Shown here one piece after another: positions 5,323-63,968 of a stretch of 64,000 nt of DNA. The notes beneath the pieces were generated by a model. It had not been told where the DNA came from. It made no database searches and saw nothing but the letters and a program-made list of their open reading frames with translations. Made by a program: the position numbers and the translations under genes. Source of the stretch: Selenomonadaceae bacterium (GTDB lineage Bacteria > Bacillota > Negativicutes > Selenomonadales > Selenomonadaceae); the NCBI GenBank assembly GCA_017515635.1, contig JAFWFO010000001.1:1162-65161 (forward strand), written 5' to 3'. Position 1 is the first letter of the stretch, and each line of letters opens with the position of its first letter.

Positions 5323-6684
5323 ATGGATTTGGAGAATAAAAAAGTTTTGGTTATCGGCGCGGCACGTAGCGGCATTGCGGCGGCGAAGGTTGCAAAAAAA
5401 TTCGGCGCACTCGTTATCTTGAGCGACGCCAAACTTGAGAGCGAAATTAATTTTGATTTTGACGAACTGCGCGGGCTTGGAATTGATTTGAGTTTCGGCA
5501 AGCAGACCGACGAACTTTTGAGCGGCGTGGATTTGATAATTGTTTCGCCCGCCGTCCCGATAAAAATTCCGTTGCTCAAAAGCGCGGCGGCAAAGAATAT
5601 TCCGATTATCAGCGAAGTCGAATTGGCTTACTCTTTGGCGAAGTCTCCGATTTGCGCGGTGACCGGCACCAACGGCAAAACCACGACGGTTACATTACTC
5701 GGTCTGTTGCTGAAAGAAAAATTTTCCAAAGTCGGCGTCGGCGGAAATATCGGCGTCCCGTTGAGCGAAGTTGCTTTGGAAGTCGGCGCGGGCGGTTGCA
5801 TTGCCGCTGAAATTTCCAGTTACCAAATGGAGGCGACGAAAAATTTTAAACCGCACGTCTCGGCGATTTTGAACGTCACGCCCGATCATTTGAAACGTCA
5901 TGGCTCAATGGAAGTTTATCAGGCGATGAAGGAAAAAATTTTCGCGCAGGAAACCACTGAAGATTTTCTGGTTTTGAATTACGACGACGAAAAAGTCCGC
6001 GAAATGATTGACCGCGCAGGTTGTCGCGTGCTTTACTTCAGCCGCAAAGTTAAACTTTTTGAAGGGGCGTTCGTCAAAAATAATCGGCTCGTCATCAAAT
6101 TCAACGGCGAAACTCACGAACTCTGCACGGTCGACGAACTCGGCATTAAAGGTTGGCATAACGTCGAAAATGCATTGGCGGCGGCATTGACGGCGTTTCT
6201 TGCGGGCGTCGACGCGGAAAAAATTTCCAACGTGCTGAAAACTTTTCAAGGCGTGGAACATCGAATTGAATTCGTGCGCGAAATTGACGGCGTGAAATAT
6301 TACAACGACTCGAAGGCGACAAACACCGATTCGGCGATTAAAGCTCTCGAAACTTTTGCGGGGCACATAATTTTGATTGCGGGCGGCGACGACAAGGGCA
6401 CTGACTTAACAGATTTTCTGCGGCTCGTCAATGAACGCGTCGATTATTTGATTCTCGTCGGTGACGCGGCGAAACGTTTCAAAACCTGCGCGCTTGCCGA
6501 AAATTTCCCTGCCGAAAAAATTTTGGAAGCGGGCTACTCCATGCAACGCGCCGTTGAACTTGCCAAAGAAATTGCTCGTCCGCCGCAAGTTGTATTGCTC
6601 AGTCCCGCCTGCGCAAGTTTCGACATGTACAGCGATTTTGAGGAACGCGGGCGAGATTTCAAGAAGATAGCTTTTGAGCTTTGA
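5323..6684 (+). CDS. murD: UDP-N-acetylmuramoylalanine--D-glutamate ligase
   Basis: N-terminal Rossmann motif VIGAARSG, Mur ligase P-loop AVTGTNGKTTT, and dcw synteny. ATG 5323 lies behind GGAG; the track start is GTG 5314. Confidence 0.93.
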   Translation: MDLENKKVLVIGAARSGIAAAKVAKKFGALVILSDAKLESEINFDFDELRGLGIDLSFGKQTDELLSGVDLIIVSPAVPIKIPLLKSAAAKNIPIISEVELAYSLAKSPICAVTGTNGKTTTVTLLGLLLKEKFSKVGVGGNIGVPLSEVALEVGAGGCIAAEISSYQMEATKNFKPHVSAILNVTPDHLKRHGSMEVYQAMKEKIFAQETTEDFLVLNYDDEKVREMIDRAGCRVLYFSRKVKLFEGAFVKNNRLVIKFNGETHELCTVDELGIKGWHNVENALAAALTAFLAGVDAEKISNVLKTFQGVEHRIEFVREIDGVKYYNDSKATNTDSAIKALETFAGHIILIAGGDDKGTDLTDFLRLVNERVDYLILVGDAAKRFKTCALAENFPAEKILEAGYSMQRAVELAKEIARPPQVVLLSPACASFDMYSDFEERGRDFKKIAFEL

Positions 6685-6703
6685 GCTTTAAGCTTTAAGG
6701 GGG
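6668..6703 (+). repeat. AAGCTTT heptamer repeat, left arm of the inverted repeat enclosing the four-helix-bundle gene
   Basis: GAGCTTTGAGCTTTAAGCTTTAAGG. Its reverse complement matches 7069-7093 at 23 of 25 positions. The murD TGA lies inside it. Confidence 0.85.
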
Positions 6704-6716
6704 AACCGGCTTCATT

Positions 6717-7088
6717 ATGGTTGCTAAAGACCACAAAGATTTAATCGTTTGGCAAAAGTCCATGGACTTGCTCGTCGAAGTTTATCGGCTCGTCAAGAAA
6801 TTGCCGCGTGAAGAAACTTACGCGCTTTCAGACCAAATGCGGCGGGCAGCTGTCTCCATTCCGTCGAACATTGCGGAAGGGCGCGGGCGTTCCTCCGAAA
6901 AAGATTACATCCGCTTTTTGTTCATTTCGCGGGGGTCGCGTGCTGAACTTGATACGCAACTTTTGGCGTGTATTCGGCTCGGCTATCTCGACGAATCCGA
7001 CGTTGAAAACGCTCTAAATTTATCTTCTGAAATCAGTAGCATGTTGAATTCCATGATTTACAAATTATCCTTAAAGCTTAAAGCTTAA
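6717..7088 (+). CDS. four-helix-bundle protein of the 23S rRNA intervening-sequence (S23p-like) family
   Basis: 123 aa. L.VWQKS.DL...VY.L.KKLP.EE.Y.L.DQ.RRAAVSIPSNIAEG.GR.S.KD...FL.I.RGS..EL.TQL matches the TIGR02436/PF05635 signature from memory. Confidence 0.8.
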   Translation: MVAKDHKDLIVWQKSMDLLVEVYRLVKKLPREETYALSDQMRRAAVSIPSNIAEGRGRSSEKDYIRFLFISRGSRAELDTQLLACIRLGYLDESDVENALNLSSEISSMLNSMIYKLSLKLKA

Positions 7089-7100
7089 AGCTTAAAGCTT
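7066..7100 (+). repeat. AAAGCTT heptamer repeat (x4), right arm of the inverted repeat
   Basis: CCTTAAAGCTTAAAGCTTAAAGCTTAAAGCTT. The TAA stop of the enclosed ORF lies inside it. Confidence 0.85.
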
Positions 7101-8878: not shown

Positions 8879-11221
8879 TTGAATTTGAAAGTTGACGGCT
8901 TGAAAAAATTTCATTTCATTGGTATCGGCGGCGTCGGCATGAGCGCGCTTGCCAAAATTTTAATCGAGAGCGGTTGCGAAGTCAGCGGCTCGGATATGAA
9001 AAATTCGCCGACTCTGGAAATGCTTAAGAGTATCGGCGCAAAAATTTTTGTCGGACATGACGCGAAAAATATTTTAGACGACGCGGGCAATCCTTGGCCT
9101 GAAGCCGTTGTTTGTTCCAGCGCAATCCCCGGCGACAATCCCGAAATAATTGCGGCGGCGAAGTTCAGAATTCCGAAACTCCACCGCTCCGACATAAATT
9201 CTTATCTGCTCAATTCGCGCAAGGGCATTGCGGTTTCCGGCTCGCACGGCAAAACCACGACAACTTCAATGATTGGTTACGTCTTGCACAGCGCGAACGT
9301 TGACCCGACGATAATTATCGGCGGCGAATCAACCGACTTGGGTACGGGTGCAATTCTCGGCGGCAGCGATTGGCTCGTCACGGAAGCCGACGAAAGCGAC
9401 GGAAGTTTTTTGACGCTCAAGCCGAAAATTGCCGTCGTCACCAACGTCGAAGATGATCACCTTGACCATTACGGCACGATTGAACGAATTCGCGCCGCGT
9501 TTAAAATTTTTATCGAAAACCTCGATCGCGAAACGGGCGTTGCCGTCGTTTGTTTCGACAACGATAATGTCCGCGAAATTGCCGGCGAAGTCGACAGAAA
9601 AATTATTTCCTACGCGATTCATCACGACGCGGACTTTATGGCGCGCAACATTCGCACGACAACCAGAGGCGTCGGCTTTGAAGTTGTTCAGCATGTCGGC
9701 GACGACGAAAAAATTCTCGGCAAAGTTAAGCTCGCGATTCACGGGCGGCATAATGTTTTGAACGCATTGGCGACGATTGCGACAGGTTTGCAAGTCGGCG
9801 TAAGTTTCGCGAAGATTGCCGAAGGTTTACGGACTTTTCACGGCGCAAAAAGACGTTTCCAATCCAAAGGACGAATCAGAAATGTTTTGGTCGTCGACGA
9901 TTACGCGCACCACCCGACGGAAATTGCCGCCACGCTCAAGGCCGCTCGCGAAATTAAACCGAATAAAGTCGTTTGCATTTTTCAGCCGCACCGTTACAGC
10001 CGCACGCAACTTTTGCTGAAGGAATTCGGCAACGCTTTTCGTGATGCGGACGTTTTGATTTTGACGGACATTTATTCTGCCGGCGAAGAAAAAATTTCGG
10101 GCGTCAGCGGCGAATCAATTCTGCATGAAGTTTTGCGCACGACGAATCAAGCCGTGTCGTACATTCCGAAACGCGAAGACATTGCCGCAGCGATTAAAGA
10201 CCAGCTCACGGCGGGCGATTTGGTTATCACTATGGGCGCGGGCGACATTTACAAGACCGGCGAAGAAATTTTGGAACTGCTCAAACAGGAACGCCGCAAA
10301 AAAATTGTCGTCATTGCGGGCGGCACGTCAACCGAGGCCGAAGTTTCACGCCGCACGGGCAAGGCCGTTGTCGACGCGCTTAAATCAAAAAATTACAACG
10401 TCGAAATGCTTGAACTTCAGCCGGAAACTTTTGCCGCCACGATTCGTGAAAAAAATCCGCTGATTGTTTTCAACGCGGTTCACGGAAAATACGGCGAAGA
10501 CGGCTTGATTCAAGGCACGCTCGATATGCTGAAAATTCCTTACACGGGGTCGGGCGTTCTTGCCGCCGCGCTGACGATGGACAAAGTCGCCACGAAACAT
10601 TTTTTGAACTCCGCCAACTTGTCCACGCCGAAATTTGCCGTCTATCGCGAAATTGACCGCACAGACGAACTTGCCGCCGAAGTCGAAAAAAAATTTGGAG
10701 TGCCCGTTGTTATCAAAGCCGCCGCGCAGGGTTCAAGTATCGGCGTGACGATTGTCGAACATGCGGACGACATTGACGAGGCGATTGACAACGCGTTTAC
10801 TTTTGGCGACGAAATTTTGGTTGAAGAATTCATCAAAGGCCGCGAATTGACGGTTGCAGTCATGGGCAACGAAGACGAGGCGGAAGCTCTGCCGATTATC
10901 GAAATCACCACGACAACGGGACGTTACGACTACAAAACGAAATACACTGCCGGCATGTCGACGCACATCTGTCCTGCGGAACTGCCCGAAGATTTGACCG
11001 ACGAAATCAAAAAACTTGCCGTTGCCGCGTTCAAACTTTGCAAATGCGCGGGTGTCGCTCGCGTTGACATGATGCTTTCCGAAAAAAATATTCCTTACGT
11101 TATCGAAGTAAATTCCGTGCCCGGCATGACGGAAACTTCACTTGTCCCCGACGCGGCTCGTGCGGCAGGTATCGAATTCCCCGAACTGTGCGAAAAAATT
11201 TTGGCGGCGGCGGGCTTCTGA
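8879..11221 (+). CDS. murC: bifunctional UDP-N-acetylmuramate--L-alanine ligase / D-alanine--D-alanine ligase (MurC-Ddl fusion)
   Basis: A single 780-aa ORF. The N-half carries FIGIGGVGMSALA and SGSHGKTTT (MurC). The C-half has an ATP-grasp ending EVNSVPGMTETSLVP (Ddl). TTG start behind GAGGAGG. Confidence 0.92.
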   Translation: MNLKVDGLKKFHFIGIGGVGMSALAKILIESGCEVSGSDMKNSPTLEMLKSIGAKIFVGHDAKNILDDAGNPWPEAVVCSSAIPGDNPEIIAAAKFRIPKLHRSDINSYLLNSRKGIAVSGSHGKTTTTSMIGYVLHSANVDPTIIIGGESTDLGTGAILGGSDWLVTEADESDGSFLTLKPKIAVVTNVEDDHLDHYGTIERIRAAFKIFIENLDRETGVAVVCFDNDNVREIAGEVDRKIISYAIHHDADFMARNIRTTTRGVGFEVVQHVGDDEKILGKVKLAIHGRHNVLNALATIATGLQVGVSFAKIAEGLRTFHGAKRRFQSKGRIRNVLVVDDYAHHPTEIAATLKAAREIKPNKVVCIFQPHRYSRTQLLLKEFGNAFRDADVLILTDIYSAGEEKISGVSGESILHEVLRTTNQAVSYIPKREDIAAAIKDQLTAGDLVITMGAGDIYKTGEEILELLKQERRKKIVVIAGGTSTEAEVSRRTGKAVVDALKSKNYNVEMLELQPETFAATIREKNPLIVFNAVHGKYGEDGLIQGTLDMLKIPYTGSGVLAAALTMDKVATKHFLNSANLSTPKFAVYREIDRTDELAAEVEKKFGVPVVIKAAAQGSSIGVTIVEHADDIDEAIDNAFTFGDEILVEEFIKGRELTVAVMGNEDEAEALPIIEITTTTGRYDYKTKYTAGMSTHICPAELPEDLTDEIKKLAVAAFKLCKCAGVARVDMMLSEKNIPYVIEVNSVPGMTETSLVPDAARAAGIEFPELCEKILAAAGF

Positions 11222-12495: not shown

Positions 12496-12531
12496 AAAAA
12501 TCCCCGTTCGATTGAGCGGGGAAATTTTTTT
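12494..12531. terminator. bidirectional terminator between ftsQ and sstT
   Basis: A7-TCCCCG-loop-CGGGGA-A3T7. Confidence 0.8.
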
Positions 12532-12547
12532 GTCCGTTTAAAAATTA

Positions 12548-13798
12548 TCATTCAGCGCGGGGCGTCAAGTCCGAAGCTTTAAGTTTGCCTGCTTTTTTGC
12601 GTTCAGCAAATTCCGCAGTCGCCGTGAAAAGCGCGTCACTCGACGAATTCAGCGCAGTTTCGCACGAGTCTTGCAACACGCCGATAATAAATCCGACGCC
12701 GACAACCTGCATTGCAATATCGTTGTCGATACCGAAACTTGCGCACGCAACGGGAATCAGCAAAAGCGAGCCGCCCGCAACGCCCGACGCTCCGCACGCG
12801 CCGACGGTTGAAATTATGCACAGCAACAACGCAGTCGGCATGTCAACGGAAATTCCCAACGTGTTCGCCGCCGCCAAACTTAAAACCGCAATCGTAATCG
12901 CCGCGCCCGCCATGTTAATCGTCGCGCCGAGAGGAATTGAAATCGAATACAAATCTTCGTTCAAGCCCAGACGTTTGCAAAGGCTCATGTTGACGGGAAT
13001 ATTCGCCGCACTCGAACGCGTGAAGAATGCGTAAATGCCGCTTTCCTTAAGCGTCGCCAAAACGAGCGGATAAGGATTCATGCCGAGTTTGAAGAAAACA
13101 ATTATCGGATTCATAATCAACGCCACGGAGAAGAACGCGCCCAAAAGTACCGCCAAAAGTTTCGCGTAGCCGAGGAGCGCATCAACGCCGCTGGTTGCAA
13201 TCGCGTCTGCAACAAGTCCCATGATACCGAACGGCGCGAAACGAATCACCCATTGCACGACTTTGGTGACGGCTTTGGCAACGTCGCTCAAAACTTCGTG
13301 GAGTTCGTCGCCCGCGTTACGGAATGCCAAACCCATAATCACGCCCCAAGCAAGAATTCCGATATAATTTGCCGTCGTCAGCGCGTGAATCGGATTGTCA
13401 ACGACGTTCATGATGACATTTTGCAAAACTTCAATGATGCCGCCCGGCGGAGTGATTGTCGTGTCCGCGCTGATTTGCAATTTCAATGTCGTTGGGAACA
13501 GGAAAGACGCCGTGACCGCAACCAGTGACGCCAGAAACGTTCCGATGACGTAAAGTTGAATTATCGGCTTCATTGTCGAATTTGATTCGGAGCGTTGGCT
13601 CATTGCGTTCATGACTAAAACGAAAACCAAAATCGGCGCGACGCCCTTCAACGCCTTGACGAAAAGTTGACCGAAAACCGCAATGAACGGCACGACCGCC
13701 GGCACGAACAAAGCCAACACAATACCGACAACCAAACCCACGGCGATTAATTTTATCAGCGCGGTTTCGCCGTAAGCTTTTGTAACTTTGGATAACAA
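12548..13798 (-). CDS. sstT: serine/threonine transporter SstT (DAACS family)
   Basis: 416 aa and polytopic. The N-terminus [18 protein letters not shown]...[21 protein letters not shown] and the overall pattern are typical of SstT. Confidence 0.85.
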
Positions 13799-14047: not shown

Positions 14048-15319
14048 ATGGTTGGTGTCAGAAAAGTTGTAGCGATAGTTTGCGGCGGTGGTCCCGCGCC
14101 CGGTATGAACGCCGTCATCAATGCGGTAACGAACACCGCGAACCGTCACGGTTGGGACGTTCTCGGCATGTACGACGGATTTTCGCATCTCGGTCGAGGC
14201 GAAAAAAGTTACATTCGCCTTGATTCGTCCGTCGTCAACAGAATTCATTTGACGGGCGGTTGTATTCTGCGCATGTCGCGTTTCAACCCCACGAAAAAAG
14301 AATCCGACTTGCGCACGGTCGTCGACACGTTGACTGAACTCGGCGTCGGCTATCTCGTGACAATCGGCGGCGACGATACCGCCTTCAGCTCATCGGCTGT
14401 TTCCGAATACGCCCGCAAACTCGGCAGGACGATTAACGTCGTGCACGTCCCGAAAACCATCGATAACGATTTGCCGTTGCCCGAAGGCATTCCGACTTTC
14501 GGCTTTGAAACCGCCCGCGCATTCGGCACGACGGAAATTCAAAACCTCATGGAGGACGCGCACACCTCGAACAATCGCTGGTACTTCACAATCGCAATGG
14601 GACGCACGGCAGGACATCTCGCGTTGGGCATGGGACGCAGTGCAGGTGCCGCCGTTACTATTATCCCTGAAGAATTCCCGCAGGAAAAAATTCGTCTGCA
14701 ACAGGTCGTTGACATTATCACCGGCTCGATTGTCAAACGCTACCTTATCGGCAAAAATTACGGCGTTGCGGTCGTCGCTGAAGGCGTCATCGAAAAAATT
14801 GCTGAGGAAGATTTCCAAGAACTCGGCAACGTCGTCCTCGACGAACACGGCCACATTCGTTATGCGGAATTGGACTTCGGCGAAATTCTTAAGCAAAAAG
14901 TTTTGTCGGAACTCAAACGCCTTGATTTGAAATTCTCAATCGTCGACAAAGAAATCGGCTACGAACTGCGTTGCACGGCTCCGATCGCTTACGACATCGA
15001 CTATGCCCGCAATTTGGGTTACGAAGCAATGCAATTCCTTATGCGCGGCGACAGTGGTGCACTTATCACGATTCAAGACAACAAGGCCGTTCCGCTCCGC
15101 TTTGAAGACATTCGCGACCCCGCCACGGGTAAAACTTTCGTGCGCAGAGTCAACATCGATTCCGTTCACTACAGAATTGCTCGCGGCTTCATGACTCGCC
15201 TTGAACGTGACGATTTGGATGACGCCGGTGTTGCCAACGCATTCCGCATGAGCCCCGAAGAATTCAAAAATCGCTACATGTATTTGTTCGACGAAGAACC
15301 GACGCTTAACAATGCGTAA
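14048..15319 (+). CDS. pfp: pyrophosphate-dependent 6-phosphofructokinase (PPi-PFK type)
   Basis: GGGPAPGMN is present. GGDDT and PKTIDND replace the GGDGS and PGTIDND of ATP-dependent PFKs. The Asp and Lys substitutions are the established PPi-specificity markers. Confidence 0.85.
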   Translation: MVGVRKVVAIVCGGGPAPGMNAVINAVTNTANRHGWDVLGMYDGFSHLGRGEKSYIRLDSSVVNRIHLTGGCILRMSRFNPTKKESDLRTVVDTLTELGVGYLVTIGGDDTAFSSSAVSEYARKLGRTINVVHVPKTIDNDLPLPEGIPTFGFETARAFGTTEIQNLMEDAHTSNNRWYFTIAMGRTAGHLALGMGRSAGAAVTIIPEEFPQEKIRLQQVVDIITGSIVKRYLIGKNYGVAVVAEGVIEKIAEEDFQELGNVVLDEHGHIRYAELDFGEILKQKVLSELKRLDLKFSIVDKEIGYELRCTAPIAYDIDYARNLGYEAMQFLMRGDSGALITIQDNKAVPLRFEDIRDPATGKTFVRRVNIDSVHYRIARGFMTRLERDDLDDAGVANAFRMSPEEFKNRYMYLFDEEPTLNNA

Positions 15320-15342
15320 TGCGTAATGCTTAATGCGTAATT
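15311..15342 (+). repeat. GCGTAAT heptamer tandem repeat (4 units) carrying the pfp stop codon
   Basis: AATGCGTAATGCGTAATGCTTAATGCGTAATT. TAA occurs at 15317, 15324, 15331 and 15338, which covers all three frames. Confidence 0.9.
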
Positions 15343-37944: not shown

Positions 37945-38036
37945 TGCTTCGCCTCCGAAAAAATTTTCGCTATCGTGATTCGTCGACGCGCCGTCAAATT
38001 CCTGCCGCAGTTTTGTCACAATAACGCGCCGAAAAA

Positions 38037-38068
38037 ATTCCTAACTCCTAATTCCAAACTCCTAACTG
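38037..38068. repeat. CCTAA(C/T)T heptamer-like repeat in the gmhB/ctsR divergent region
   Basis: ATTCCTAACTCCTAATTCCAAACTCCTAACTG. It has a single arm and no inverted partner nearby. Confidence 0.7.
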
Positions 38069-38625: not shown

Positions 38626-39243
38626 TTGAAACGAGAACTTGAACATTTTTATATCGGCGACTCTTACGGCGGGCAACAGGAATGGTATTCGCGCCTGACG
38701 AATTTCGGAATGCACATCGGCGGCTGCGCGGCGATAACTGCCTGCGACTGTTCGATTTACTTCACGAAATATTTCGGGCGCAAACTTTATCCGTTCGACG
38801 CGCAAAATCTCACTAAGGTTGAGTATTTGGAGTTCGGTAAAATTATGGAGCCGTACTTGTATCCGCGCTGGTCGGGCGTCGACAAACTGGAAATTTACAT
38901 TGACGGCTACGGCAGATTTCTGCGCGACCATGACGAAAAATCTTTGACGCTTGCGCCGTGGTCGGGTGAAAATTCTTTCGAGGACACGCGGGAAATTGTT
39001 CGCCGACAAATTGACGCGGGCTTTCCGATACCCTGCCTGACGCTGAATCACCACGAGCCGGCACTTGAAGATTACAACTGGCACTGGTTTATTTTGAACG
39101 CTTACGACGAATGCGACGGGAAATTTTTCGTCAAGGCGGTGACTTACGGCGTCGGGCGTTGGTTCGACTTGCAGACGTTGTGGGACACGGGCTATCAGCG
39201 TAAAGGCGGCTTGATTTTGTTCGGATTTGACAGCAAAAATTAA
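38626..39243 (+). CDS. hypothetical protein, possibly a papain-like Cys/His fold
   Basis: 205 aa. GGCAAITACD and NWHWFILNAY give a Cys...His arrangement reminiscent of C39-like or BtrH-like peptidases. This rests on weak recognition only. Confidence 0.4.
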   Translation: MKRELEHFYIGDSYGGQQEWYSRLTNFGMHIGGCAAITACDCSIYFTKYFGRKLYPFDAQNLTKVEYLEFGKIMEPYLYPRWSGVDKLEIYIDGYGRFLRDHDEKSLTLAPWSGENSFEDTREIVRRQIDAGFPIPCLTLNHHEPALEDYNWHWFILNAYDECDGKFFVKAVTYGVGRWFDLQTLWDTGYQRKGGLILFGFDSKN

Positions 39244-39281
39244 TAATGTTATCTTTAATCGCAAAACTTGGGGCGGAGCGA
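39225..39281 (+). repeat. direct repeat copy 1 (rib promoter plus the first ~20 nt of the FMN aptamer)
   Basis: TTTGACAGCAAAAATTAATnnTGTTATCTTTAATCGCnAAACTTGGGGCGGAGCGA recurs at 39363-39419 with 3 mismatches. Confidence 0.85.
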
Positions 39282-39355: not shown

Positions 39356-39364
39356 GCAAAAAAT

Positions 39365-39393
39365 TTGACAGCAAAAATTAATCGTGTTATCTT
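39365..39393 (+). promoter_or_regulatory. rib operon promoter TTGACA-17nt-TATCTT
   Basis: Consensus -35 at 39365-70, a 17-nt spacer and a weak -10 at 39388-93, immediately 5' of the FMN aptamer P1. Confidence 0.55.
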
Positions 39394-39401
39394 TAATCGC
39401 G

Positions 39402-39594
39402 AAACTTGGGGCGGAGCGAAATTCTCCACCGGCGGTGACAGTCCGCGAGCCTTTTTTCAGTTAGGAATTTGGAATTAGGAATTAGGAATTAGTTGAACGA
39501 CTTAATTCCTAACTGCTAACTCCTCACTCCTAATTAAAAAGGTTGACTCGGCGAAATTCCGAGACCGACGGTTAAAGTCCGGATGTGAAAGTTT
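39402..39594 (+). promoter_or_regulatory. FMN riboswitch (RFN element) aptamer with an enlarged variable hairpin
   Basis: P1 is AAACUU/AAGUUU. The conserved blocks are GGGGCGGAGCGAAAUUCUCCACCGGCGGU, AGUCCGCGAGCC and GGCGAAAUUCCGAGACCGACGGUUAAAGUCCGGAUG.GA.AG. A ~90-nt heptamer-repeat hairpin sits in the variable loop. Confidence 0.9.
39459..39538 (+). repeat. AATTAGG heptamer-repeat hairpin
   Basis: AGTTAGGAATTTGGAATTAGGAATTAGGAATTA-loop-TAATTCCTAACTGCTAACTCCTCAC. The 33-nt left arm is identical to the reverse complement of part of 62941-63016. Confidence 0.85.
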
Positions 39595-39612
39595 TGCAAA
39601 CATCAATTTGAA

Positions 39613-39652
39613 TTTACCCGCCCGAAGTGTAAAAATTTTTGGGCGGTTTTTG
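39613..39652 (+). terminator. riboswitch expression-platform terminator
   Basis: CCGCCC-17-nt loop-GGGCGG followed by TTTTT, 17 nt before the first ORF. Confidence 0.75.
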
Positions 39653-39668
39653 ATTGGAGGGTTTGACC

Positions 39669-40355
39669 ATGAAAAAAATTTTTGTCCTTGGCGTCATGTT
39701 GAGCCTGCTTTTCGTCGCGCAGTCGGCTTTCGCAATGACGTTTCAACAGCCCGTCAAGATCGGCAGAATCGGTTTCCCGGTTCAAGCACCGTATCACGGA
39801 TTAATTATTGACGGCGCTAATTATAATGACGGCACGCCTTACCGCGAAAAAAGCAATAAAACAACTTACACGAAAGGCACGGCGCGTTTCGGCGAAGGGA
39901 CGAACGCTCTTTGGTGCAGATATAATTTTGAGCGAAAAAATTCCGCTGATTGTTTCATTAAATTCGGCGGCGCGAATGATTTTGTCTTGACTCAATACAT
40001 CGCTGACAAAGAGATTTTCCGAATCGACAACGACGCAGGCGTCGCGCTCTATGCAAGTTATCATATTTATTGCGTAACCGATTTGAAAATCCTCGGCACG
40101 CGAAAAGATGGCAAATGGGTTGTTTACATTGACAGTAAAAAAATCAGCGATAAATATTTTGGCGGCAAGGATTCTTACAAATTGGACGGCGGCGTTCTCT
40201 ACGAAGTGCCAACCTGCGCGGGAGATACGTTGATTGTTCAATATCGTCGCTGGCATTGGTCAACTAACGGCGGCATATCTGAGCCCGAAGGCGAATTCCG
40301 TTTCAAGTGGGACGACAAGGCGCAGTGGTTCGGCGTCGAGCAGATTGTTTATTGA
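39669..40355 (+). CDS. secreted protein of unknown function, rib-operon paralog 1
   Basis: Signal peptide MKKIFVLGVMLSLLFVAQSAFA|MTFQQPVK, and the C-terminus [21 protein letters not shown]. Paralogous to 41005..41688 and 42440..43162. Confidence 0.8.
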   Translation: MKKIFVLGVMLSLLFVAQSAFAMTFQQPVKIGRIGFPVQAPYHGLIIDGANYNDGTPYREKSNKTTYTKGTARFGEGTNALWCRYNFERKNSADCFIKFGGANDFVLTQYIADKEIFRIDNDAGVALYASYHIYCVTDLKILGTRKDGKWVVYIDSKKISDKYFGGKDSYKLDGGVLYEVPTCAGDTLIVQYRRWHWSTNGGISEPEGEFRFKWDDKAQWFGVEQIVY

Positions 40356-40364
40356 GGTGACGAA

Positions 40365-40991
40365 ATGTTCACTGGGATTGTTGAGGAAGTCGGCAAGCTC
40401 AGAAGTTTGGACGGCGGGCGAATCGAAATTTCTTGCGCGAAAGTTTTGGACGACGTGAAAATCGGCGACAGCATAAACACGAACGGAATTTGCTTGACGG
40501 TCGTCGACTTCGGCGAAAATTTTTTTGCGGCAGACGTAATGCCTGAAACTTTCCGCAAAACTTCGCTTGACGAATTGAAACGCGGCGGCATTGTAAATCT
40601 TGAACGCGCCTTGAAAGTCGGCGACAGATTCGGCGGGCACATCGTCAGCGGGCACATTGACGGCGTCGGAAAAATTTTGAGCATTCGTCCCGAAGGCAAC
40701 GCGGTTTTGATCGACGTGGCGGCAGAAAATTTTTTGCTCCGACAAATCGCGTCGAAAGGTTCCGTTGCGCTTGACGGAATTAGTTTGACGGTCGTGGACG
40801 CGGGCAACGAAAAATTTTCCGTGTCGATGATTCCGCACACTCGCGCCGTCACGAACTTTCAATCTAAGCGCGTCGGCAGTCCCGTCAACATTGAAACGGA
40901 CGTTTTGGCAAAGTATGTCGAACGCTTGCTTAATTTCAAAACTTCCGCAAACGTGACGAAAAATTTTTTGGAGGCGAACGGTTTCATTTAA
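40365..40991 (+). CDS. ribE: riboflavin synthase (alpha chain)
   Basis: MFTGIVEE.G.........I.......L.D.K.GDSI..NG.CLTV, plus the internal duplication (GHIVSGHIDG...DGISLTVV). Confidence 0.93.
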   Translation: MFTGIVEEVGKLRSLDGGRIEISCAKVLDDVKIGDSINTNGICLTVVDFGENFFAADVMPETFRKTSLDELKRGGIVNLERALKVGDRFGGHIVSGHIDGVGKILSIRPEGNAVLIDVAAENFLLRQIASKGSVALDGISLTVVDAGNEKFSVSMIPHTRAVTNFQSKRVGSPVNIETDVLAKYVERLLNFKTSANVTKNFLEANGFI

Positions 40992-41004
40992 GGATGGATT
41001 GATC

Positions 41005-41688
41005 ATGAAAAAATTTTTACTCGGCGTCGTTTTAAGCGTGCTTTTCGTCGCGCAGTCGGCTTTCGCCATGACTTTTCAACAGCCCGTCAAGCTTGGTGAT
41101 TTTGTTTGGAAGCAAGTTCACCATAACAGCTTTGAAATTAAAGGCGCGACTTACAACAGTGGGCAATCGAACGTTGAGCCACGCTCGGGTAGGATTTATT
41201 ATACAAAAGGCGTTGCGCGCTTTGGTGACGGCGATTCGGCGATCTGGTTACACTATAACAAAGAAAATCGTCCTCCTTTTGGAAAACTTGGCGGACAAAA
41301 TTTCAATAACGTCTTGTCTGAAGATTTTTTGGGAACAGGCTACGAAATTTTTTTTATCGGCGAAGAGCGTGGCTTTAAATTTTACGCCATCAGGGGCGGC
41401 TACGACCTTCCTTCCGCTCAATTTCGTTACGAGTACGACATTATAGGGCGCAAGCCGGATGGTACTTGGGTTAAATATCTCAACACGGGAAAACTTTTGA
41501 AGCAGTACATCGGCAAAGATTACGCCTGTTCGATTCAAAACGTTACGACATCGGGCAATACGATCATCATGCAATACAAAATTCTGGAATATAAACTCAG
41601 ACGCGTGACAGACGGTCGTTGCGGCGAACTTCGATTCAAATGGGACGAGACGGCGCAGTGGTTCGGCGTCGAACAAGTGAGGTACTGA
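41005..41688 (+). CDS. secreted protein of unknown function, rib-operon paralog 2
   Basis: Signal peptide ..VLFVAQSAFA|MTFQQPVK, and the C-terminus [21 protein letters not shown]. Confidence 0.8.
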   Translation: MKKFLLGVVLSVLFVAQSAFAMTFQQPVKLGDFVWKQVHHNSFEIKGATYNSGQSNVEPRSGRIYYTKGVARFGDGDSAIWLHYNKENRPPFGKLGGQNFNNVLSEDFLGTGYEIFFIGEERGFKFYAIRGGYDLPSAQFRYEYDIIGRKPDGTWVKYLNTGKLLKQYIGKDYACSIQNVTTSGNTIIMQYKILEYKLRRVTDGRCGELRFKWDETAQWFGVEQVRY

Positions 41689-41689
41689 A

Positions 41690-42424
41690 ATGAAAATTTT
41701 CAAAAAATTAATCGCAGTCGTCGCGGCAATGATTTTTCTGTCGAACACGGCAATCGCTCAACGGCACGAAAGCCCCAAATCTTGGCTGAAATATCTTTCG
41801 GGCGATTGGTACGACAACAACGGCAAGCTTGTCCTGTCGATTCACGACGGCTACATCAACGGTTGCAAAATTTTGTACTGCCAACGCGTGGCGGGTGGAG
41901 GCGGTTTGGCGGGCGGCGATTTTTGTATTTCGGAGGGCGCGGGCAACAGGTTGATTCATCTGTCGTGGAATATTCAACATCAACAATCCGATTCATTGGC
42001 AGTCGACAGGCGGCAAACTCTCCACAAATTTTTTCCATTCCATTTCGAGTCGGTCGGCGGAGTTCATCTGGGCATGACGCGGGACGAAGTCAACAAAAAA
42101 CTCGGCAACGACATCAAGAAAATTTCCAAAAGCGAAGTTACCAGATTAACGGGCGACACTTTCGGTTTTGACGACACATGGTTTGTTGAAAAACTCGGAG
42201 TAATACTGACGTTCGAGGCGGGCAGCGTTGACAGAATAATTCTGTTGAAGTCGAGTAAAAATGTTTTGGAGCATTCGCGCCTGAATTGTTCAAACAGTTT
42301 AAAAGAATTTGCCGCCGCATATCAAAAGCCGCTCCCAAAGAAATATTTAGGCATCGGGCACGGCGAACATATTTCTTTCGGCGAAGGAATGCGTTATATC
42401 ATGCTGTCGAATTACAACAACTGA
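41690..42424 (+). CDS. secreted protein of unknown function (244 aa, unrelated to the paralog family)
   Basis: Signal peptide MKIFKKLIAVVAAMIFLSNTAIA|Q. Its start is 1 nt after the upstream stop. Confidence 0.65.
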   Translation: MKIFKKLIAVVAAMIFLSNTAIAQRHESPKSWLKYLSGDWYDNNGKLVLSIHDGYINGCKILYCQRVAGGGGLAGGDFCISEGAGNRLIHLSWNIQHQQSDSLAVDRRQTLHKFFPFHFESVGGVHLGMTRDEVNKKLGNDIKKISKSEVTRLTGDTFGFDDTWFVEKLGVILTFEAGSVDRIILLKSSKNVLEHSRLNCSNSLKEFAAAYQKPLPKKYLGIGHGEHISFGEGMRYIMLSNYNN

Positions 42425-42439
42425 ACGGAGGTTTTCACC

Positions 42440-43162
42440 ATGAAAAAAATTTTTGTCGCCGTCGTCGTGAGCGTGCTTTTTGTCGCGCAAACCGCTTTGG
42501 CAATGACGTTTCAACAGCCCGTGAAAGTCGGCAGGGTCAGCGGAACACCTCAAGGCGGTTTCAGCATTGACGGCGCATCTTATAACAACGGCACTTCATT
42601 TCAAAACGGGAAATTGGATAAACAATGGGGCAAGCTTTACGAAAAAGGAATTGCCCGTTTCGGTGACGGCGATGCCGCGTTGTACATGCATTACGATTGT
42701 TCGCCGAACAAAAGTCGACAGTATTGGGACGCTTACGCGCCAAAATTCGGTGACAAGGACGCCAAAAGAACTGTTTCATTGTGGGCTGGCGAAGGCGAAA
42801 CCGTTACGATATACACAACAAAAAATGACGGCAATGTCACTTTGTATTTGCTCAGGGGTGAAGGTCCGATAGCGGGAACGACAAATTACATTCTTCTTGG
42901 CAGACGCTCGGACGGGATTTTTGTCAAATATTTCGACTTGGAAGACATAAACATCAAATACTTTGGCTTGCAAAAAAACAAATACGGCACGACGAGAGGA
43001 CGTTTGAGCCCGTGGTATAAAAACCTTCGTTGTCAAGGCGATACGATTATAATCGATTACGAACGTTCACACGGGCGGAGCGGTTACGTCAAAGAGGGCG
43101 AATTCCGTTTCAAGTGGGACGAGGCGGCGCAGTGGTTCGGCGTCGAACAAATTATCTATTGA
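42440..43162 (+). CDS. secreted protein of unknown function, rib-operon paralog 3
   Basis: Signal peptide ..[10 protein letters not shown]|MTFQQPVK, and the C-terminus [21 protein letters not shown]. Confidence 0.8.
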
Positions 43163-43175
43163 GGTGAAAATTTTT

Positions 43176-44369
43176 ATGAGTGAATTTGCAACGATTGAGC
43201 AGGCTATTGACGACATTAAGCGCGGCAAGATGATTGTTGTTGTCGACGACGAAGACCGCGAAAACGAAGGCGACTTGATTGTTGCCGCCGAGACCGTCAC
43301 GCCCGCCGACATAAATTTTATGGCGACGCACGCCAAAGGTTTGATTTGCACGCCCATTGACGGCAAACGCCTTGACGAACTGGAAATCGGGCAGATGGTC
43401 ACCAACAACACCGACAATCACGAAACGGCCTTCACGGTGTCGATTGACGCTTACGACACGGACACGGGCATTTCCGCTTACGAACGCTGTCACACGATTA
43501 AAATGTTGCTTGACCCTGCCGCGAAGTCTTCAAGTTTTCGTCGACCGGGTCACGTCTTCCCGCTACGTTCGGTTGAGGGCGGAGTTTTGCGCCGCGCCGG
43601 TCACACGGAGACGACAACCGACCTTGCGCGATTGGCGGGCTTTTATCCTGCGGGTTTGTGTTGCGAAATTATGGATGACGACGGGCACATGATGCGCACG
43701 GAAAATCTTAAAAAATTCGCGGACAAACACGGGCTGAACATTATCAGTGTTCGGGCGTTGATTGAATATCGCAAGCGCACGGAAAAATTCGTCAAGCAAA
43801 TTGCCGACGTGGATTTTCCCAGCAAGTACGGGCATTTTCGGCTTAAAGCTTATGAAAGCACGCTTGACGGCAAATGTCATCTGGCGATTGTCAAAGGCGA
43901 CGTTGCGGGCAAGTCGAACGTTTTGGTTCGCGTGCATTCGGAGTGCCTGACGGGCGACGCGTTGGGAAGTTTGCGTTGTGATTGCGGCGATCAACTTGCC
44001 ACGGCGCTGAAAAAAATCGACGCGGCGGGCGAAGGCGTTTTGCTTTACATGCGGCAGGAAGGTCGCGGAATCGGACTTGCCAACAAAATTCGGGCTTACG
44101 CACTTCAAGACGCGGGCAAAGACACTGTCGAAGCGAACGTTATTTTGGGATTCAAGCCCGATCTTCGCGATTACGGTATCGGCGCGCAGATTCTTTCCGA
44201 CTTGGGCTTGACGACGATAAAACTTTTGACGAACAATCCCGCCAAACGCGCAGGACTTGAAGGGCACGGCTTGACTATAACCGAACGCGTCCCGATTGTC
44301 ATTGCGCCGACGAAGTTCGATAAAAATTATCTCACCGTCAAAAAAACTAAAATGGGTCACGTATTGTAA
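43176..44369 (+). CDS. ribBA: bifunctional 3,4-dihydroxy-2-butanone-4-phosphate synthase / GTP cyclohydrolase II
   Basis: [11 protein letters not shown] (DHBP synthase), and [20 protein letters not shown] (the GCH II zinc site). Confidence 0.95.
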
Positions 44370-44449
44370 GCTTTTAGCTTATGAGCTTTAAGCTTTAAGT
44401 AAAATTTTCGTCACTCCCTTAAAGCTCAAAGCTTGCAGTTTAAAGCTAA
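44366..44449 (+). repeat. AAGCTTT heptamer-repeat hairpin between ribBA and ribH
   Basis: The arms GAGCTTTAAGCTTTAAG and CTTAAAGCTCAAAGCTT flank a ~18-nt loop. The ribBA stop TAA begins the repeat. Confidence 0.8.
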
Positions 44450-44468
44450 TTTTTCGGAGGCGATTTAC

Positions 44469-44951
44469 TTGAAAATTTACGAAGGCAACATCAGCGGCCG
44501 CGATTTAAAATTTGCGATTGTCGTCGCAAGGTTTAACGAATTCATCACGAGCAAACTTTTGAGCGGCGCGATTGACGCGTTGAAACGTCACGAGACGCCC
44601 GAAGAAAATATTTCCGTCGCATGGGTGCCGGGCGCGTTTGAAATTCCGTTGGTTGCCAAAAAGTTGGCGGAGACCAAAAATTTCGACGCGATAATTTGTC
44701 TGGGCTGTGTGATTCGCGGATCGACAACGCATTATGATTACGTCTGCAACGAAGTTTCCAAAGGCGTGGCTCAAGTTGGTTTGCAAAGCGGCATTCCGAC
44801 AATTTTCGGCGTCGTCACAACCGAAAACATTCAACAGGCGATTGAACGTTCCGGCACGAAAGCCGGCAACAAAGGTTTTGACGCGGCGATTTCAGCAATG
44901 GAAATGGCAAACCTGTTAAAAAATCTTCCGAGCGTCGAAATAAATTTTTGA
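44469..44951 (+). CDS. ribH: 6,7-dimethyl-8-ribityllumazine synthase
   Basis: ..[20 protein letters not shown]........V.WVPGAFE.P......A......DA.ICLG.VIRG.T.HYDYV. TTG start behind GGAGG; the track start is 44433. Confidence 0.93.
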
Positions 44952-45032: not shown

Positions 45033-45067
45033 AAAAAAACCCTCTCCAAATTCGGAGGGGGCTTTTT
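45033..45067. terminator. bidirectional terminator after ribH and the zinc-ribbon gene
   Basis: CCCTCTCC-loop-GGAGGGGG, flanked by A7 and T5. Confidence 0.75.
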
Positions 45068-45082
45068 CGTTGCAAGTTGACA

Positions 45083-45750: not shown

Positions 45751-45966
45751 TTAACTGGTTATCCAGTCCCAAGCCTGTTTAATCTTGTCACCAAGTGCAC
45801 TGCCGCCCGCCACGTTGTCGAGTTCCTCGTCGCTGAGTTGCTCCAAATCGTAGCCTTCAGCCTTCGCCAGCGCGATTGCTTGCGACTCGTTTTCCACGCC
45901 TTTGAATTTTGCGGCAAATTCCGCGTCGCTCTCGATTCTTGATTTAAATTCCTTGAAACCTTTCAT
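45751..45966 (-). CDS. Nif11-type double-glycine leader peptide precursor (16-aa core SALGDKIKQAWDWITS)
   Basis: MKGFKEFKSRIESDAEFAAKFKGVENESQAIALAKAEGYDLEQLSDEELDNVAGG|SALGDKIKQAWDWITS. It has the Nif11 N-terminal helix pattern and the LSDEEL..VAGG cleavage motif. Confidence 0.75.
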   Translation of the reverse strand: MKGFKEFKSRIESDAEFAAKFKGVENESQAIALAKAEGYDLEQLSDEELDNVAGGSALGDKIKQAWDWITS

Positions 45967-46009
45967 GATTATCATCCTCTAAATTGTAAATTGTTTCTTT
46001 CTGCACCTT

Positions 46010-46074: not shown

Positions 46075-46107
46075 CATTACGCATTACGAATTACGCATTA
46101 CGCATTG
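46075..46107 (-). repeat. GCGTAAT heptamer tandem repeat (4-5 units)
   Basis: The minus strand reads CAATGCGTAATGCGTAATTCGTAATGCGTAATG, with a 7-nt period. Confidence 0.85.
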
Positions 46108-46161: not shown

Positions 46162-46533
46162 TTACCATTTCCAATCTTTTTCCGTCATGTAGTGTCCGGT
46201 AACTTTCATTGCGTGCTGACGCGCCTGTTCCTGCGTAACTTGCTGACCGTTGATGAAATATTTATTGGGGGCTCCTTCACCGATTATATAACCCGAATGA
46301 AGTTCTGCCTTGACTCCGACTGTTGCCCAAGCTTTTGTGATTTCTTCGCCGTGCGATTGATTTCTAATTCGCCATTCACCATAGCGGTCGCATGAGCCGT
46401 TCAAACTGTTCAAAAAGCGGCTGTCATCTGCCATTTCAGTTGTAGTGCCGCCCGCGACCCGGTCGAGTTCCTTGTCGTTCAACTTTTCCAGCTCGTCGTT
46501 GATTTTTTTGAGGTTTTCTTCACGTGTTGCCAT
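46162..46533 (-). CDS. double-glycine-leader secreted protein, paralog A (123 aa; 94-aa core)
   Basis: MATREENLKKINDELEKLNDKELDRVAGG|TTTEMADDSRFLNSL.... AGGAG RBS. Own promoter and terminator. Confidence 0.75.
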   Translation of the reverse strand: MATREENLKKINDELEKLNDKELDRVAGGTTTEMADDSRFLNSLNGSCDRYGEWRIRNQSHGEEITKAWATVGVKAELHSGYIIGEGAPNKYFINGQQVTQEQARQHAMKVTGHYMTEKDWKW

Positions 46534-46624
46534 TGTTATCAATCTCCTTTGATTTGATTAAAAATTTTTTTCGGCAGTGCTGTCAATTCAGCGTGTCCCT
46601 TGCGGCTCTGTTTTTCTGACTGTT

Positions 46625-62923: not shown

Positions 62924-62940
62924 GCGGCAACCTCCAATCA

Positions 62941-63016
62941 GTGAGGAGTTTGAAGTTAGGAGTTAGGAGTTAATCTCGTCTTAATTCCTAATTCCTAATT
63001 CCAAATTCCTAACTCA
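62941..63016 (-). repeat. AATTAGG heptamer-repeat hairpin (same element as in the FMN riboswitch loop)
   Basis: The minus strand reads GAGTTAGGAATTTGGAATTAGGAATTAGGAATTA-loop-AACTCCTAACTCCTAACTTCAAACTCCTCAC. The TAG stop of the upstream gene lies in the first unit. Confidence 0.85.
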
Positions 63017-63968
63017 TAATTGCTTTATCGACGCCCGTCTCGTCGAAAGTTTTCATTTCGTTTAACATGGTCAATGCCGCTTCGACAATCTCGACGCCCG
63101 CGCAGGATGCCTCGCCGTCAAAACCATTAGGCGTGCCGTCGTCGGACTCATAAACAATCAGCCTGTCGACGCGCAAAATGAACGGGCGAATTTCGGGACA
63201 AATTTTTTCCATGTAGCGGGCAATGATGTCCGCCGCGCCCGTGTCGACGACAATCAACGTGGAATTATGCGCCGCCGCGACAAGTGCCCCGATAATCGCG
63301 CCGGTCATTGCCTGATAATTTTTCGGGACGTGACGCAAAAATTCTTCGGGCGGGAATTTTAAATCGCCGTCGGGCGTCAACAACGCGTCGTAAAATTTTT
63401 CGGCAAGTCTGTCCTCCAAAAGGTTACCCAAATCCGTGAGCGCAAGAATCGGCGTTTCAAAAGAAATTTCTTCGGCAAGGTTGCGTCCGAAATTGAACGC
63501 GGCATTTAAATTTTCTTCGGGATTGATGACGCCCAAAAAAATTTTCATGCCGAAAGTTCGAGTCGTCGCGCTGAAATCCATTGCCAAATCACGGCGACCG
63601 CCCTTCACGTTGGGATTGTAATTTTCGTCGGTGAATGACGGGCAGTTTTCAAAATTCGTGAAGGCAAGCGCGGCATGACGCAATTTGTTCGTCGGACAAT
63701 CTTCGTTGGAAATTCCCGCCGCCTGCACTGCAATTTCTTCGAGATAACCCAAACTTCCACGCGGCTTTGTCAAGTTGTCGATAAGTTCGCGGCAATTTTT
63801 CATTGCACGGTCGTTGAGTTTCGGCATCGTCTGCAGATAAAAATTAAAAGTTCTGTCGGTCGCGACAACACGGTCGTCGTCGTCCTCGCCCATGACGCGC
63901 ACAGCCATCGGATAAGCGCGGGGAATGTTCATTTTGTTCGTGTCGAACGGCAATTCAATGCTGTCCAT
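63009..63968 (-). CDS. CobT-like (nicotinate-nucleotide--dimethylbenzimidazole phosphoribosyltransferase family) protein
   Basis: LTKPRGSLGYLEEIAVQAAGI matches the CobT KPxGSLGxLE signature. The reading frame stays open upstream to the window edge, so the true start may lie beyond 64000. The ORF ends in TAG. Confidence 0.65.
   Translation of the reverse strand: MDSIELPFDTNKMNIPRAYPMAVRVMGEDDDDRVVATDRTFNFYLQTMPKLNDRAMKNCRELIDNLTKPRGSLGYLEEIAVQAAGISNEDCPTNKLRHAALAFTNFENCPSFTDENYNPNVKGGRRDLAMDFSATTRTFGMKIFLGVINPEENLNAAFNFGRNLAEEISFETPILALTDLGNLLEDRLAEKFYDALLTPDGDLKFPPEEFLRHVPKNYQAMTGAIIGALVAAAHNSTLIVVDTGAADIIARYMEKICPEIRPFILRVDRLIVYESDDGTPNGFDGEASCAGVEIVEAALTMLNEMKTFDETGVDKAIMS

Follow-up and report, generated by a model that had tools for sequence, protein, structure and literature searches.

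Exported-protein genes in a flavin-riboswitch operon of a Selenomonadaceae bacterium appear to be exchangeable passengers

Introduction

Why should an operon for riboflavin synthesis carry genes for exported proteins? The question is raised by a stretch of 64,000 nucleotides from a rumen-type Selenomonadaceae bacterium (contig JAFWFO010000001.1, positions 1,162 to 65,161 of the forward strand; hereafter the window), in which the riboflavin (rib) genes ribE, ribBA and ribH stand behind a flavin mononucleotide (FMN) riboswitch, or RFN element, and are interleaved with four genes whose products have predicted signal peptides. Three of these, X1, X2 and X3, belong to one family, here called X, and the fourth, P4, to another. 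An earlier note, made from the sequence alone, took the arrangement to suggest an extracytoplasmic flavin-related function. There is nothing unusual in the riboswitch or the rib enzymes, and literature searches found no description of this rib operon arrangement. Here, we compare the locus with those of its relatives (designated by L numbers) and weigh what the extra genes may be. We favour, with moderate confidence, the reading that they are passenger cassettes in a permissive operon, which respond to FMN as a side effect, encode non-enzymatic envelope proteins and have cores diversified by recombination.

Results

Three rib genes and four exported-protein genes share one riboswitch

The unit opens with a promoter-like sequence that keeps the same position in relatives, followed by an FMN riboswitch that matches the full RF00050 model with 97.5 bits (E 2.7e-21; gathering score 66.2) and by an expression platform resembling an intrinsic terminator, whose stem arms are CCCGCCCGAA/UUUUUGGGCGG and whose CCGCC core is invariant among relatives (Table 1). 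The variable P3 loop of the aptamer carries a 79-nt insertion, with a hairpin composed of TTAGGAA-type heptamers (-29.9 kcal/mol, z -5.0). Downstream, the open reading frames (ORFs) and their Pfam matches agree on the order X1, ribE, X2, P4, X3, ribBA, ribH, so that the aptamer, the terminator and the seven-gene order all stand as the earlier note had read them. The genes are tightly packed, with gaps of 9, 13, 1, 15 and 1 nt from X1 to ribBA, apart from a ribBA-ribH spacer of 63-99 nt that contains a repeat hairpin; this hairpin is missing in L017 and L043, whose ribBA and ribH abut. Comparison with relatives places the start of ribBA probably at ATG 43176 and that of ribH probably at TTG 44469. 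The RibBA of the window is 97% identical to those of L008 and L011. The arrangement is not an assembly artefact, since it is seen again in many independent assemblies.

The only good terminator of the gene block lies after ribH, and one weak, chance-level candidate lies inside ribE. Given a single upstream promoter, riboswitch and terminator, one terminator after ribH and no convincing terminator in between, we infer that the four exported-protein genes are probably co-transcribed and FMN-responsive; the architecture thus supports the co-regulation that the earlier note had proposed. The window also encodes a lipopolysaccharide heptosyltransferase, a GmhB-like HAD hydrolase and an AcrB-type pump, and from these lipopolysaccharide-core enzymes and the pump we take the host to be diderm, so that "exported" means the periplasm or beyond.

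The cargo of the operon varies among close relatives

The RibBA proteins of relatives are 84-98% identical to that of the window, yet the cargo of their operons varies. The slot between ribE and ribBA, which holds X2-P4-X3 in the window, is empty in L016, L017 and L043 and is occupied in several relatives by VapBC-like antitoxin/PIN toxin pairs (L011 2201-2847, L022 11338-11996, L034 11302-11978 and L140 3284-3937). The pair is joined by a DNA_alkylation-family gene in L022 and L034, whereas in L140 the cargo runs from an X3-like gene fragment through P4 to a PIN-domain gene. A PGA_cap gene forms the cargo in L008, L009 and L015. In L021, an aldo-keto reductase gene (12526-13455) lies between ribBA and ribH.

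The X genes themselves also change places and types. L141 carries an X3-like gene (66%) 5' of ribE and an X1-like gene (86%) 3' of it. In slot 1, i.e., between the riboswitch and ribE, L043 carries an X of a distant subfamily (at most 36% identity), though its RibBA is 91% identical to that of the window. L142 is identical to the window (100%) in X2, over 102 aa, and in ribBA, and 93% identical in P4, yet its third-position X has only 46% identity to X3. In a neighbour-joining tree, rib-linked X genes are not monophyletic; among the genome loci fetched, the nearest relatives of X1 and X2 are genes 1 and 2 of an array on a conjugative element (58% for X2).

The X family occupies tight slots in many unrelated contexts

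A word-indexed search with X1 returned 132 homologs, whose named sources are only "hypothetical protein" entries of Selenomonadaceae metagenome-assembled genomes (MAGs) and which have no Pfam domains; an exhaustive profile search over 1.84 billion cluster representatives extended the family to 344 clusters at 50% identity. All named sources of X matches are Negativicutes, and single MAGs can hold several X loci (RGIG4823 five, RGIG4811 four). P4 has 13 homologs.

A species-level survey, with one genome per GTDB species, gave 45 X loci, almost all from Negativicutes (Selenomonadaceae, Anaerovibrio, Megamonas, Schwartzia, Quinella, Acidaminococcaceae, Sporomusa and Pelosinus). X stands immediately 5' of ribE at seven of them (L015, L016, L017, L021, L022, L034 and L043), nearly all from one Selenomonadaceae clade, and the same adjacency is found on the metagenome contigs L008-L011, L140, L141 and L143-L146; an intact FMN aptamer precedes X in most rib-linked loci. 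The other 38 loci have no rib genes. Outside rib operons, X fills the hisF-hisIE slot (gaps 1 and 25 nt), follows truB (7 nt), is flanked by genes for a P-type ATPase and a DUF445 protein (2 and 2 nt) or by those for a solute-binding protein and a MiaB-like protein, lies 3' of M14 peptidase, major facilitator superfamily transporter or AAA ATPase genes, or is solitary. A four-gene X array lies on a conjugative-type contig with VirB4, TrbL (type IV secretion system), a relaxase and a toxin-antitoxin pair. Neither PLSDB plasmids nor INPHARED phages matched X1 in a tblastn search. P4 likewise occurs outside rib operons: in L005-L007 it has an X gene on either side, and in L047 X genes are nearby. 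A further signal-peptide family of roughly 170-190 aa, here called Y, is a recurrent companion of X (ten loci).

A covariance model built from the aptamers of the clade found no FMN element outside rib operons in 750 kb of family loci, and no Rfam riboswitch of any class was found at ten non-rib X loci with long upstream spacers. The earlier note had asked whether homologs are tied to rib genes or RFN elements elsewhere; such a tie exists for slot 1 of this one clade and does not extend to the other X loci, where no recurrent linkage to flavin genes or RFN elements across lineages is seen.

Two further neighbourhoods were recorded. A gene for a CsgG-like lipoprotein (PF03783, E 1.3e-7) lies directly 5' of X in L026 (9114-9941) and L036 (8891-9703), which may hint at a passage through the outer membrane. 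In L012, a RAGATH-18 RNA (70 bits, 10823-10884) lies near a BrnT toxin gene, 3' of the ATPase-X-DUF445 cluster.

Conserved gene ends coincide with sharp mosaic boundaries

At the DNA level, the X genes of the window are 79-80% identical over a 99-nt stretch from the ribosome-binding site through the signal peptide to the tenth mature residue, and 74-89% identical over their last 74 nt; the conserved 5' end encodes the signal peptide plus an MTFxQPVK motif, and the 3' end is likewise conserved. Identity profiles against relatives break within these ends. X3 is 100% identical to its L142 counterpart up to about 42472, 90% up to 42522, 22-66% through the core and again 100% from 43123. X1 is similarly mosaic against L011, L008 and L141: it is 95% identical to L011, then 43-62% over 39840-40060, then 97-100%, and its variable segment agrees at 100% with the slot-2 X of L141, an X gene that falls to 77-85% identity in its 3' half. 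Since the sharp boundaries sit in the conserved coding ends, these ends would seem to act like homology arms for swaps of cores or whole genes.

Many X genes end in TAT TGA GGTG, which provides a Shine-Dalgarno sequence before the next gene and from which we infer that insertions are non-polar. Two loci point to how an insert may arrive. In L025, a 20-nt duplication comprising the ribosome-binding site and ATG of hisIE surrounds the insert (9960-10010 and 10660-10700); in L042, X and the downstream Y gene have about 70 nt in common, all coding for signal peptide (1260-1335 and 1960-2035). Duplications in the control distribution rarely exceed 13 nt. These duplications suggest that the region around the target's translation start is copied upon insertion.

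X and P4 are predicted exported proteins under purifying selection

All four extra ORFs show, as read by eye, an MKK-type n-region, a hydrophobic core and an A-x-A site, in line with signal peptides of Sec type and with the secretion that the earlier note had assigned to them, and the signal peptide appears as an N-terminal helix in the AlphaFold models of X and P4. The predicted cleavage in X1 falls between MKKIFVLGVMLSLLFVAQSAFA and the following M; further examples are ...AQSAFA/MTFQQPVK (X) and ...SNTAIA/Q (P4). X1, X2 and X3 are mutual paralogs of about 40-45% protein identity (43-45% in the alignment; 43% between X2 and X1), and P4 is unrelated to them (hhalign probability 13%), which agrees with the three secreted paralogs plus one unrelated secreted ORF first described.

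The AlphaFold2 model of X, built from 75 sequences, has a pLDDT (predicted local distance difference test) of 92.8 and a pTM (predicted template modelling score) of 0.86, and comprises about 17 short strands and one helix; the P4 model reaches a pLDDT of 88. Foldseek returned nothing at E<=0.001 for X against PDB and BFVD (best E 0.05, template modelling score <0.3) or for P4 against PDB (best E 0.09, score <0.3), and profile searches of both against PDB sequences gave no match. Scans of Pfam, NCBIfam, PHROGs and PADLOC likewise gave no match for X1-3, P4, the Y-family neighbour or a 205-aa gene upstream of the operon. The structure searches that the earlier note had proposed for the secreted ORFs thus returned no fold match for X or P4. 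X appears to be an undescribed exported family with a confidently modelled all-beta fold unlike any solved structure.

The invariant positions of the X alignment are glycines and aromatics, with no catalytic-type set of residues. P4 has two invariant cysteines, Cys59 and Cys200, whose presence fits an oxidising compartment. Three X-family members carry C-terminal TPR repeats, a hint that points only to protein-protein interaction. We consider X and P4 to be probably non-enzymatic and located in the envelope. An outer-membrane beta-barrel with a C-terminal beta-signal was considered for X and rejected, as the predicted strands are short (3-9 residues); the terminal ...VEQIVY, which lacks an alternating hydrophobic pattern, also disfavours it.

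Whole-gene ratios of nonsynonymous to synonymous substitution rates (dN/dS) are 0.18-0.34 for X, 0.16-0.27 for P4, 0.15-0.20 for ribE and 0.05-0.07 for ribBA. As these values show purifying selection, X and P4 are functional genes, not debris. Positive selection on X is rejected on the same ratios, arguing that X diversity stems from segment exchange and not from point substitution.

ribD lies outside the riboswitch unit

A search for the RibD zinc motif (PC-x5-10-PC) and tblastn with same-clade RibD found no ribD in any part of the 64-kb window, the operon included. This bears out the earlier note, which had read the operon as lacking ribD and had seen a signal-peptide protein in its usual position; X1 indeed stands between the riboswitch and ribE. 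The absence is unusual, because ribD lies directly 5' of ribE at about 50 of 56 unrelated metagenomic loci whose upstream sequence extends over at least 1.3 kb. These baseline loci come from a RibE metagenome scan that returned only distant taxa (at most 60% identity), in which a RibD motif occurs somewhere in 55 of 80 unrelated ribE loci.

In L017, recO is followed by ribD, a macro-domain gene and a 203-aa gene, after which come the FMN riboswitch and then X, ribE, ribBA and ribH. The ribD of L017 is complete, with deaminase and RibD_C parts, and lies three genes upstream, outside the riboswitch unit. The slot-1 X of L017 is 67% identical to X1 and its RibBA 93% identical to that of the window. 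The clade therefore has ribD, but outside the riboswitch unit, and its lack from the operon does not amount to a broken pathway. In the organism of the window, ribD must be more than about 20-40 kb away, or absent.

The 203-aa gene of L017 has counterparts elsewhere. A protein of 203-206 aa, cytoplasmic-looking, with several Cys, the sequence MK[RK]EL[EP]HFY[IV]G[DN]S.GGQQEWYSR... and no Pfam, PHROG or PADLOC match, is encoded in the window (38626-39243, + strand), L016 (528-1139), L017 (8936-9547) and L008 (703-1323). The gene stands 5' of the rib riboswitch in the window (directly), L016 and L017; in L008 it follows ctsR, and three genes separate it from the riboswitch.

Alternatives to passenger genes

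Several observations weigh against the extra genes being mere passengers. Slot 1 always holds an X in the rib operons examined from the clade (about ten distinct lineages), and it does so despite changes of paralog type and decay of the aptamer; this persistence could reflect selection for the linkage and not neutrality. The X tree is a rough neighbour-joining tree only, target duplications were found at only two loci (L025 and L042), and promoter-like matches lie inside the block, as discussed below.

The persistence of slot 1 bears above all on the proposal of the earlier note, i.e., that the exported proteins have an extracytoplasmic flavin role, such as flavin capture, shuttling or envelope chemistry, and that their placement behind the riboswitch is adaptive. 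In its favour, the slot keeps an X even where X has diverged to 36-49% identity, export is predicted, the conserved aromatics are many (W215, W221, F222 and several Tyr/Phe), and X is under purifying selection. We nevertheless judge this role unlikely. The 38 of 45 species-level loci without a rib gene are also without an FMN element, and members of the family lie inside his, truB and ATPase operons, among others, and on a conjugative element. The slot-1 genes are not a single orthologous lineage, and the rib operons of relatives also house toxin-antitoxin, PGA_cap, DNA_alkylation and aldo-keto reductase genes. No FMN_bind, ApbE, flavodoxin or dodecin match was found at E<=0.1 in X1-3 or P4 (Pfam, NCBIfam), the flavinylation motif Dxx[ST]GA[ST] occurs in none of the four proteins and in 1 of 75 family members, and Foldseek against PDB found no structural likeness of X or P4 to solved flavin-binding proteins. 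Moreover, the aptamer has decayed in one subclade: L022 retains a 64-nt remnant (9869-9932) with P3-P5 deleted and 45.5 bits, below the gathering score, and L021 (9930-10000) has lost the aptamer and keeps the terminator-like hairpin alone, yet X-ribE-ribBA is retained in both. Derepression of X and P4 under flavin limitation is probably a by-product of position and not a matter of flavin chemistry, the flavin link being an accident.

A second explanation of slot 1, to which we give slightly less credit, is a neutral ratchet, in which X is kept because its 3' end (TAT TGA GGTG) supplies the ribosome-binding site of ribE or couples its translation, so that imprecise loss would silence ribE. The junction ...TATTGAGGTG-N5-ATG(ribE) is kept in the window, L017 and L043, an equal stop-plus-Shine-Dalgarno ending precedes ribBA (after X3) and the DUF445 gene of L012, and the slot survives paralog replacement. 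However, purifying selection acts along the length of X, which implies that the protein itself matters, and close relatives gain and lose ribE-ribBA inserts cleanly.

Improbable, too, is the explanation that the extra genes use internal promoters of their own and are insensitive to FMN, tight packing giving the mere look of an operon. Weak promoter-like matches do occur inside X1 (40129), X2 (41174) and ribBA (43207), and 19 of them fall in the region where 7.1 are expected, but a consensus match is not functional evidence. Gaps of 1-15 nt are too small for regulatory regions, the block lacks internal terminators save the chance-level one in ribE, and ribBA and ribH, downstream of the inserts, require read-through from the riboswitch promoter. 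Finally, that X is a non-homologous RibD substitute (deaminase/reductase), as its position might invite one to think, is effectively refuted by its predicted cleavable signal peptide, its invariant glycines and aromatics in place of catalytic-type residues, the true RibD upstream alongside X in L017, and its many non-rib contexts.

Other features of the window

A truncated duplicate of the promoter and aptamer start precedes the operon (Table 1). It sits 138 nt before the original and extends over the promoter into the aptamer, of which it includes the first ~22 nt; its promoter-like TTGACA-17-TATCTT at 39227-39255 is identical to that of the operon, and the sequence separating the two copies is also found upstream of the L008 promoter. 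An RNA begun at the upstream copy would have no more of P1/P2 than their 5' strand, with a small GC hairpin, CCCGCTTTAAAAGCGGGGG, behind it. The duplicate may be the footprint of a tandem duplication (138 nt) or a decoy start.

The hairpins in the P3 loop and the ribBA-ribH spacer have counterparts elsewhere in the window. Intergenic hairpins of about 4.5 tandem heptamers and their complements occur at nine sites, with a heptamer that varies by site (TTAGGAA, TAAGCTT, AATGCGT, CATTACG, CTTAAAG and others), and L008 and L011 carry AATGCGT-type hairpins in the corresponding P3 loop. They look like a genome-wide class of repeat hairpins.

Downstream of the operon, on the opposite strand, lie genes for two peptides with double-glycine leaders, …NVAGG and …DRVAGG (45751-45975 and 46162-46542, both - strand); in the peptide at 45751-45975 the leader domain is of Nif11 type (E 1.2e-6). 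Both peptides are candidate precursors of bacteriocins or of ribosomally synthesized and post-translationally modified peptides.

Table 1. Features of the rib operon and associated repeats, in window coordinates
Feature	Position	Strand	Remarks
Truncated promoter/aptamer duplicate	39225..39281	+	57-nt direct repeat, 95% identical to 39363-39419
Putative sigma-70-like operon promoter	39365..39393	+	TTGACA-17-TATCTT, extended -10 TG, 10/12 positions
FMN aptamer, RF00050	39398..39598	+	heptamer-repeat hairpin inserted in P3 loop, 39452-39545
Expression platform, intrinsic-terminator-like hairpin and U-run	39618..39652	+	10-bp GC-rich stem 39618-39646, then UUUUU
X1 (P1), predicted exported protein, slot 1	39669..40355	+	X family; hypervariable core ~39840-40060
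ribE, riboflavin synthase	40365..40991	+	PF00677 Lum_binding, two domains, 3.7e-47
X2 (P2), X-family paralog	41005..41688	+	gene 1 of three-gene ribE/ribBA insert
P4, predicted exported protein, second family	41690..42424	+	no relation to X
X3 (P3), X-family paralog	42440..43162	+	core 42523-43122 differs in L142
ribBA, 3,4-dihydroxy-2-butanone 4-phosphate (DHBP) synthase / GTP cyclohydrolase II	43164..44369	+	PF00926 3.5e-86, PF00925 4.6e-72
ribBA-ribH heptamer-repeat hairpin	44369..44447	+	-27.5 kcal/mol, z -2.0; TAAGCTT repeats
ribH, lumazine synthase	ORF 44433-44951	+	PF00885 DMRL_synthase 3.7e-62
Operon terminator	45040..45071	+	8-bp stem, 6 GC pairs, then CTTTTTCGTT
Heptamer hairpins (1)	2104-2146, 6673-6699, 7070-7100, 15311-15341, 38036-38067		
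Heptamer hairpins (2)	39461-39533, 44367-44399, 46075-46106, 62940-63021		

Discussion

The locus asked why an FMN-controlled operon should encode exported proteins, and the passenger reading answers it as follows. The host would be a ribE-ribBA-ribH operon under an FMN riboswitch, with ribD unlinked, that has turned into a permissive landing site for promoter-less genes. Its passengers, three X paralogs and one P4, each with its own ribosome-binding site, would be transcribed from the riboswitch-controlled message and their products exported by Sec to the periplasm or envelope. The conserved ends of X would serve as homology arms, through which paralogs and central segments are traded among slots, loci and strains.

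A wider reading seems possible to us but is held tentatively. X, P4 and Y might together represent a new kind of cassette, promoter-less and self-translating, with exported products of unmatched fold, which would have colonised tight slots in the rib, his, truB and ATPase operons of Negativicutes as well as conjugative elements. Their cores would diversify through homologous exchange at the conserved coding ends, and insertion would at times duplicate the translation-start region of the downstream gene, as the two loci with duplications suggest. The outcome might be envelope diversification, for phage or toxin defence or for surface variation, with expression borrowed from the host operon.

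What is new here is a variant of the rib operon that lacks ribD and differs in gene content among near-identical strains, an apparently undescribed family of predicted exported proteins almost confined to Negativicutes, with a predicted fold that has no match, and segmental exchange at conserved gene ends that is directly visible in the sequence. A conserved biosynthetic operon can thus be a fast-changing landing pad for passengers between near-identical strains. For riboflavin biology, the locus carries a caution: a position downstream of a riboswitch does not by itself show that a gene's function is related, and an operon without ribD does not imply an incomplete pathway. If the cassette behaviour is general, it would show how accessory envelope proteins gain expression without promoters of their own, and flavin starvation would incidentally remodel the envelope in these rumen bacteria.

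The unit is best compared first with the Bacillus subtilis operon ribDG-E-BA-H. Like it, the window unit has an RF00050 aptamer with an intrinsic terminator and carries ribE, a fused ribBA and ribH in canonical order on one strand; unlike it, it lacks ribD, is interleaved with four exported-protein genes and bears a repeat hairpin in aptamer P3. Genes other than those of biosynthesis are familiar behind such riboswitches: RFN-linked riboflavin transporters are polytopic membrane proteins that recur behind RFN in many phyla. Surveys, that of Vitreschak et al. in 2002 and later ones, reportedly place the transporters RibU/YpaA, RibM/PnuX, ImpX and RfnT behind FMN riboswitches. X and P4 resemble these transporters as non-biosynthetic genes placed under FMN control, whereas they appear to encode soluble beta proteins with signal peptides and are RFN-linked in this operon only. 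Extracytoplasmic flavin proteins include FMN_bind-domain proteins, such as Listeria PplA, and the ApbE/Ftp flavin transferases; X and P4 share with them the predicted exported location, but no sequence, motif or fold.

Further parallels lie among mobile and mosaic genes. As in integron cassettes, the ORFs are promoter-less, need an upstream promoter and vary in content at a fixed site among close relatives; unlike in integrons, no integrase is found among the annotated neighbours, and X exchange apparently proceeds via homology in the coding ends. Mosaic paralogs are known from the segmental conversion of neisserial pilE/pilS and from the arrays of orphan periplasmic immunity genes on mobile elements of Bacteroidales. 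Like these, X is multi-copy, forms tandem arrays, occurs on a conjugative element and combines conserved termini with core exchange and predicted exported products; unlike them, it has no homology to them, no demonstrated phase or antigenic variation and no cognate toxin. In contrast to silent donors, moreover, the X copies are intact genes, predicted to be expressed, that reside within housekeeping operons.

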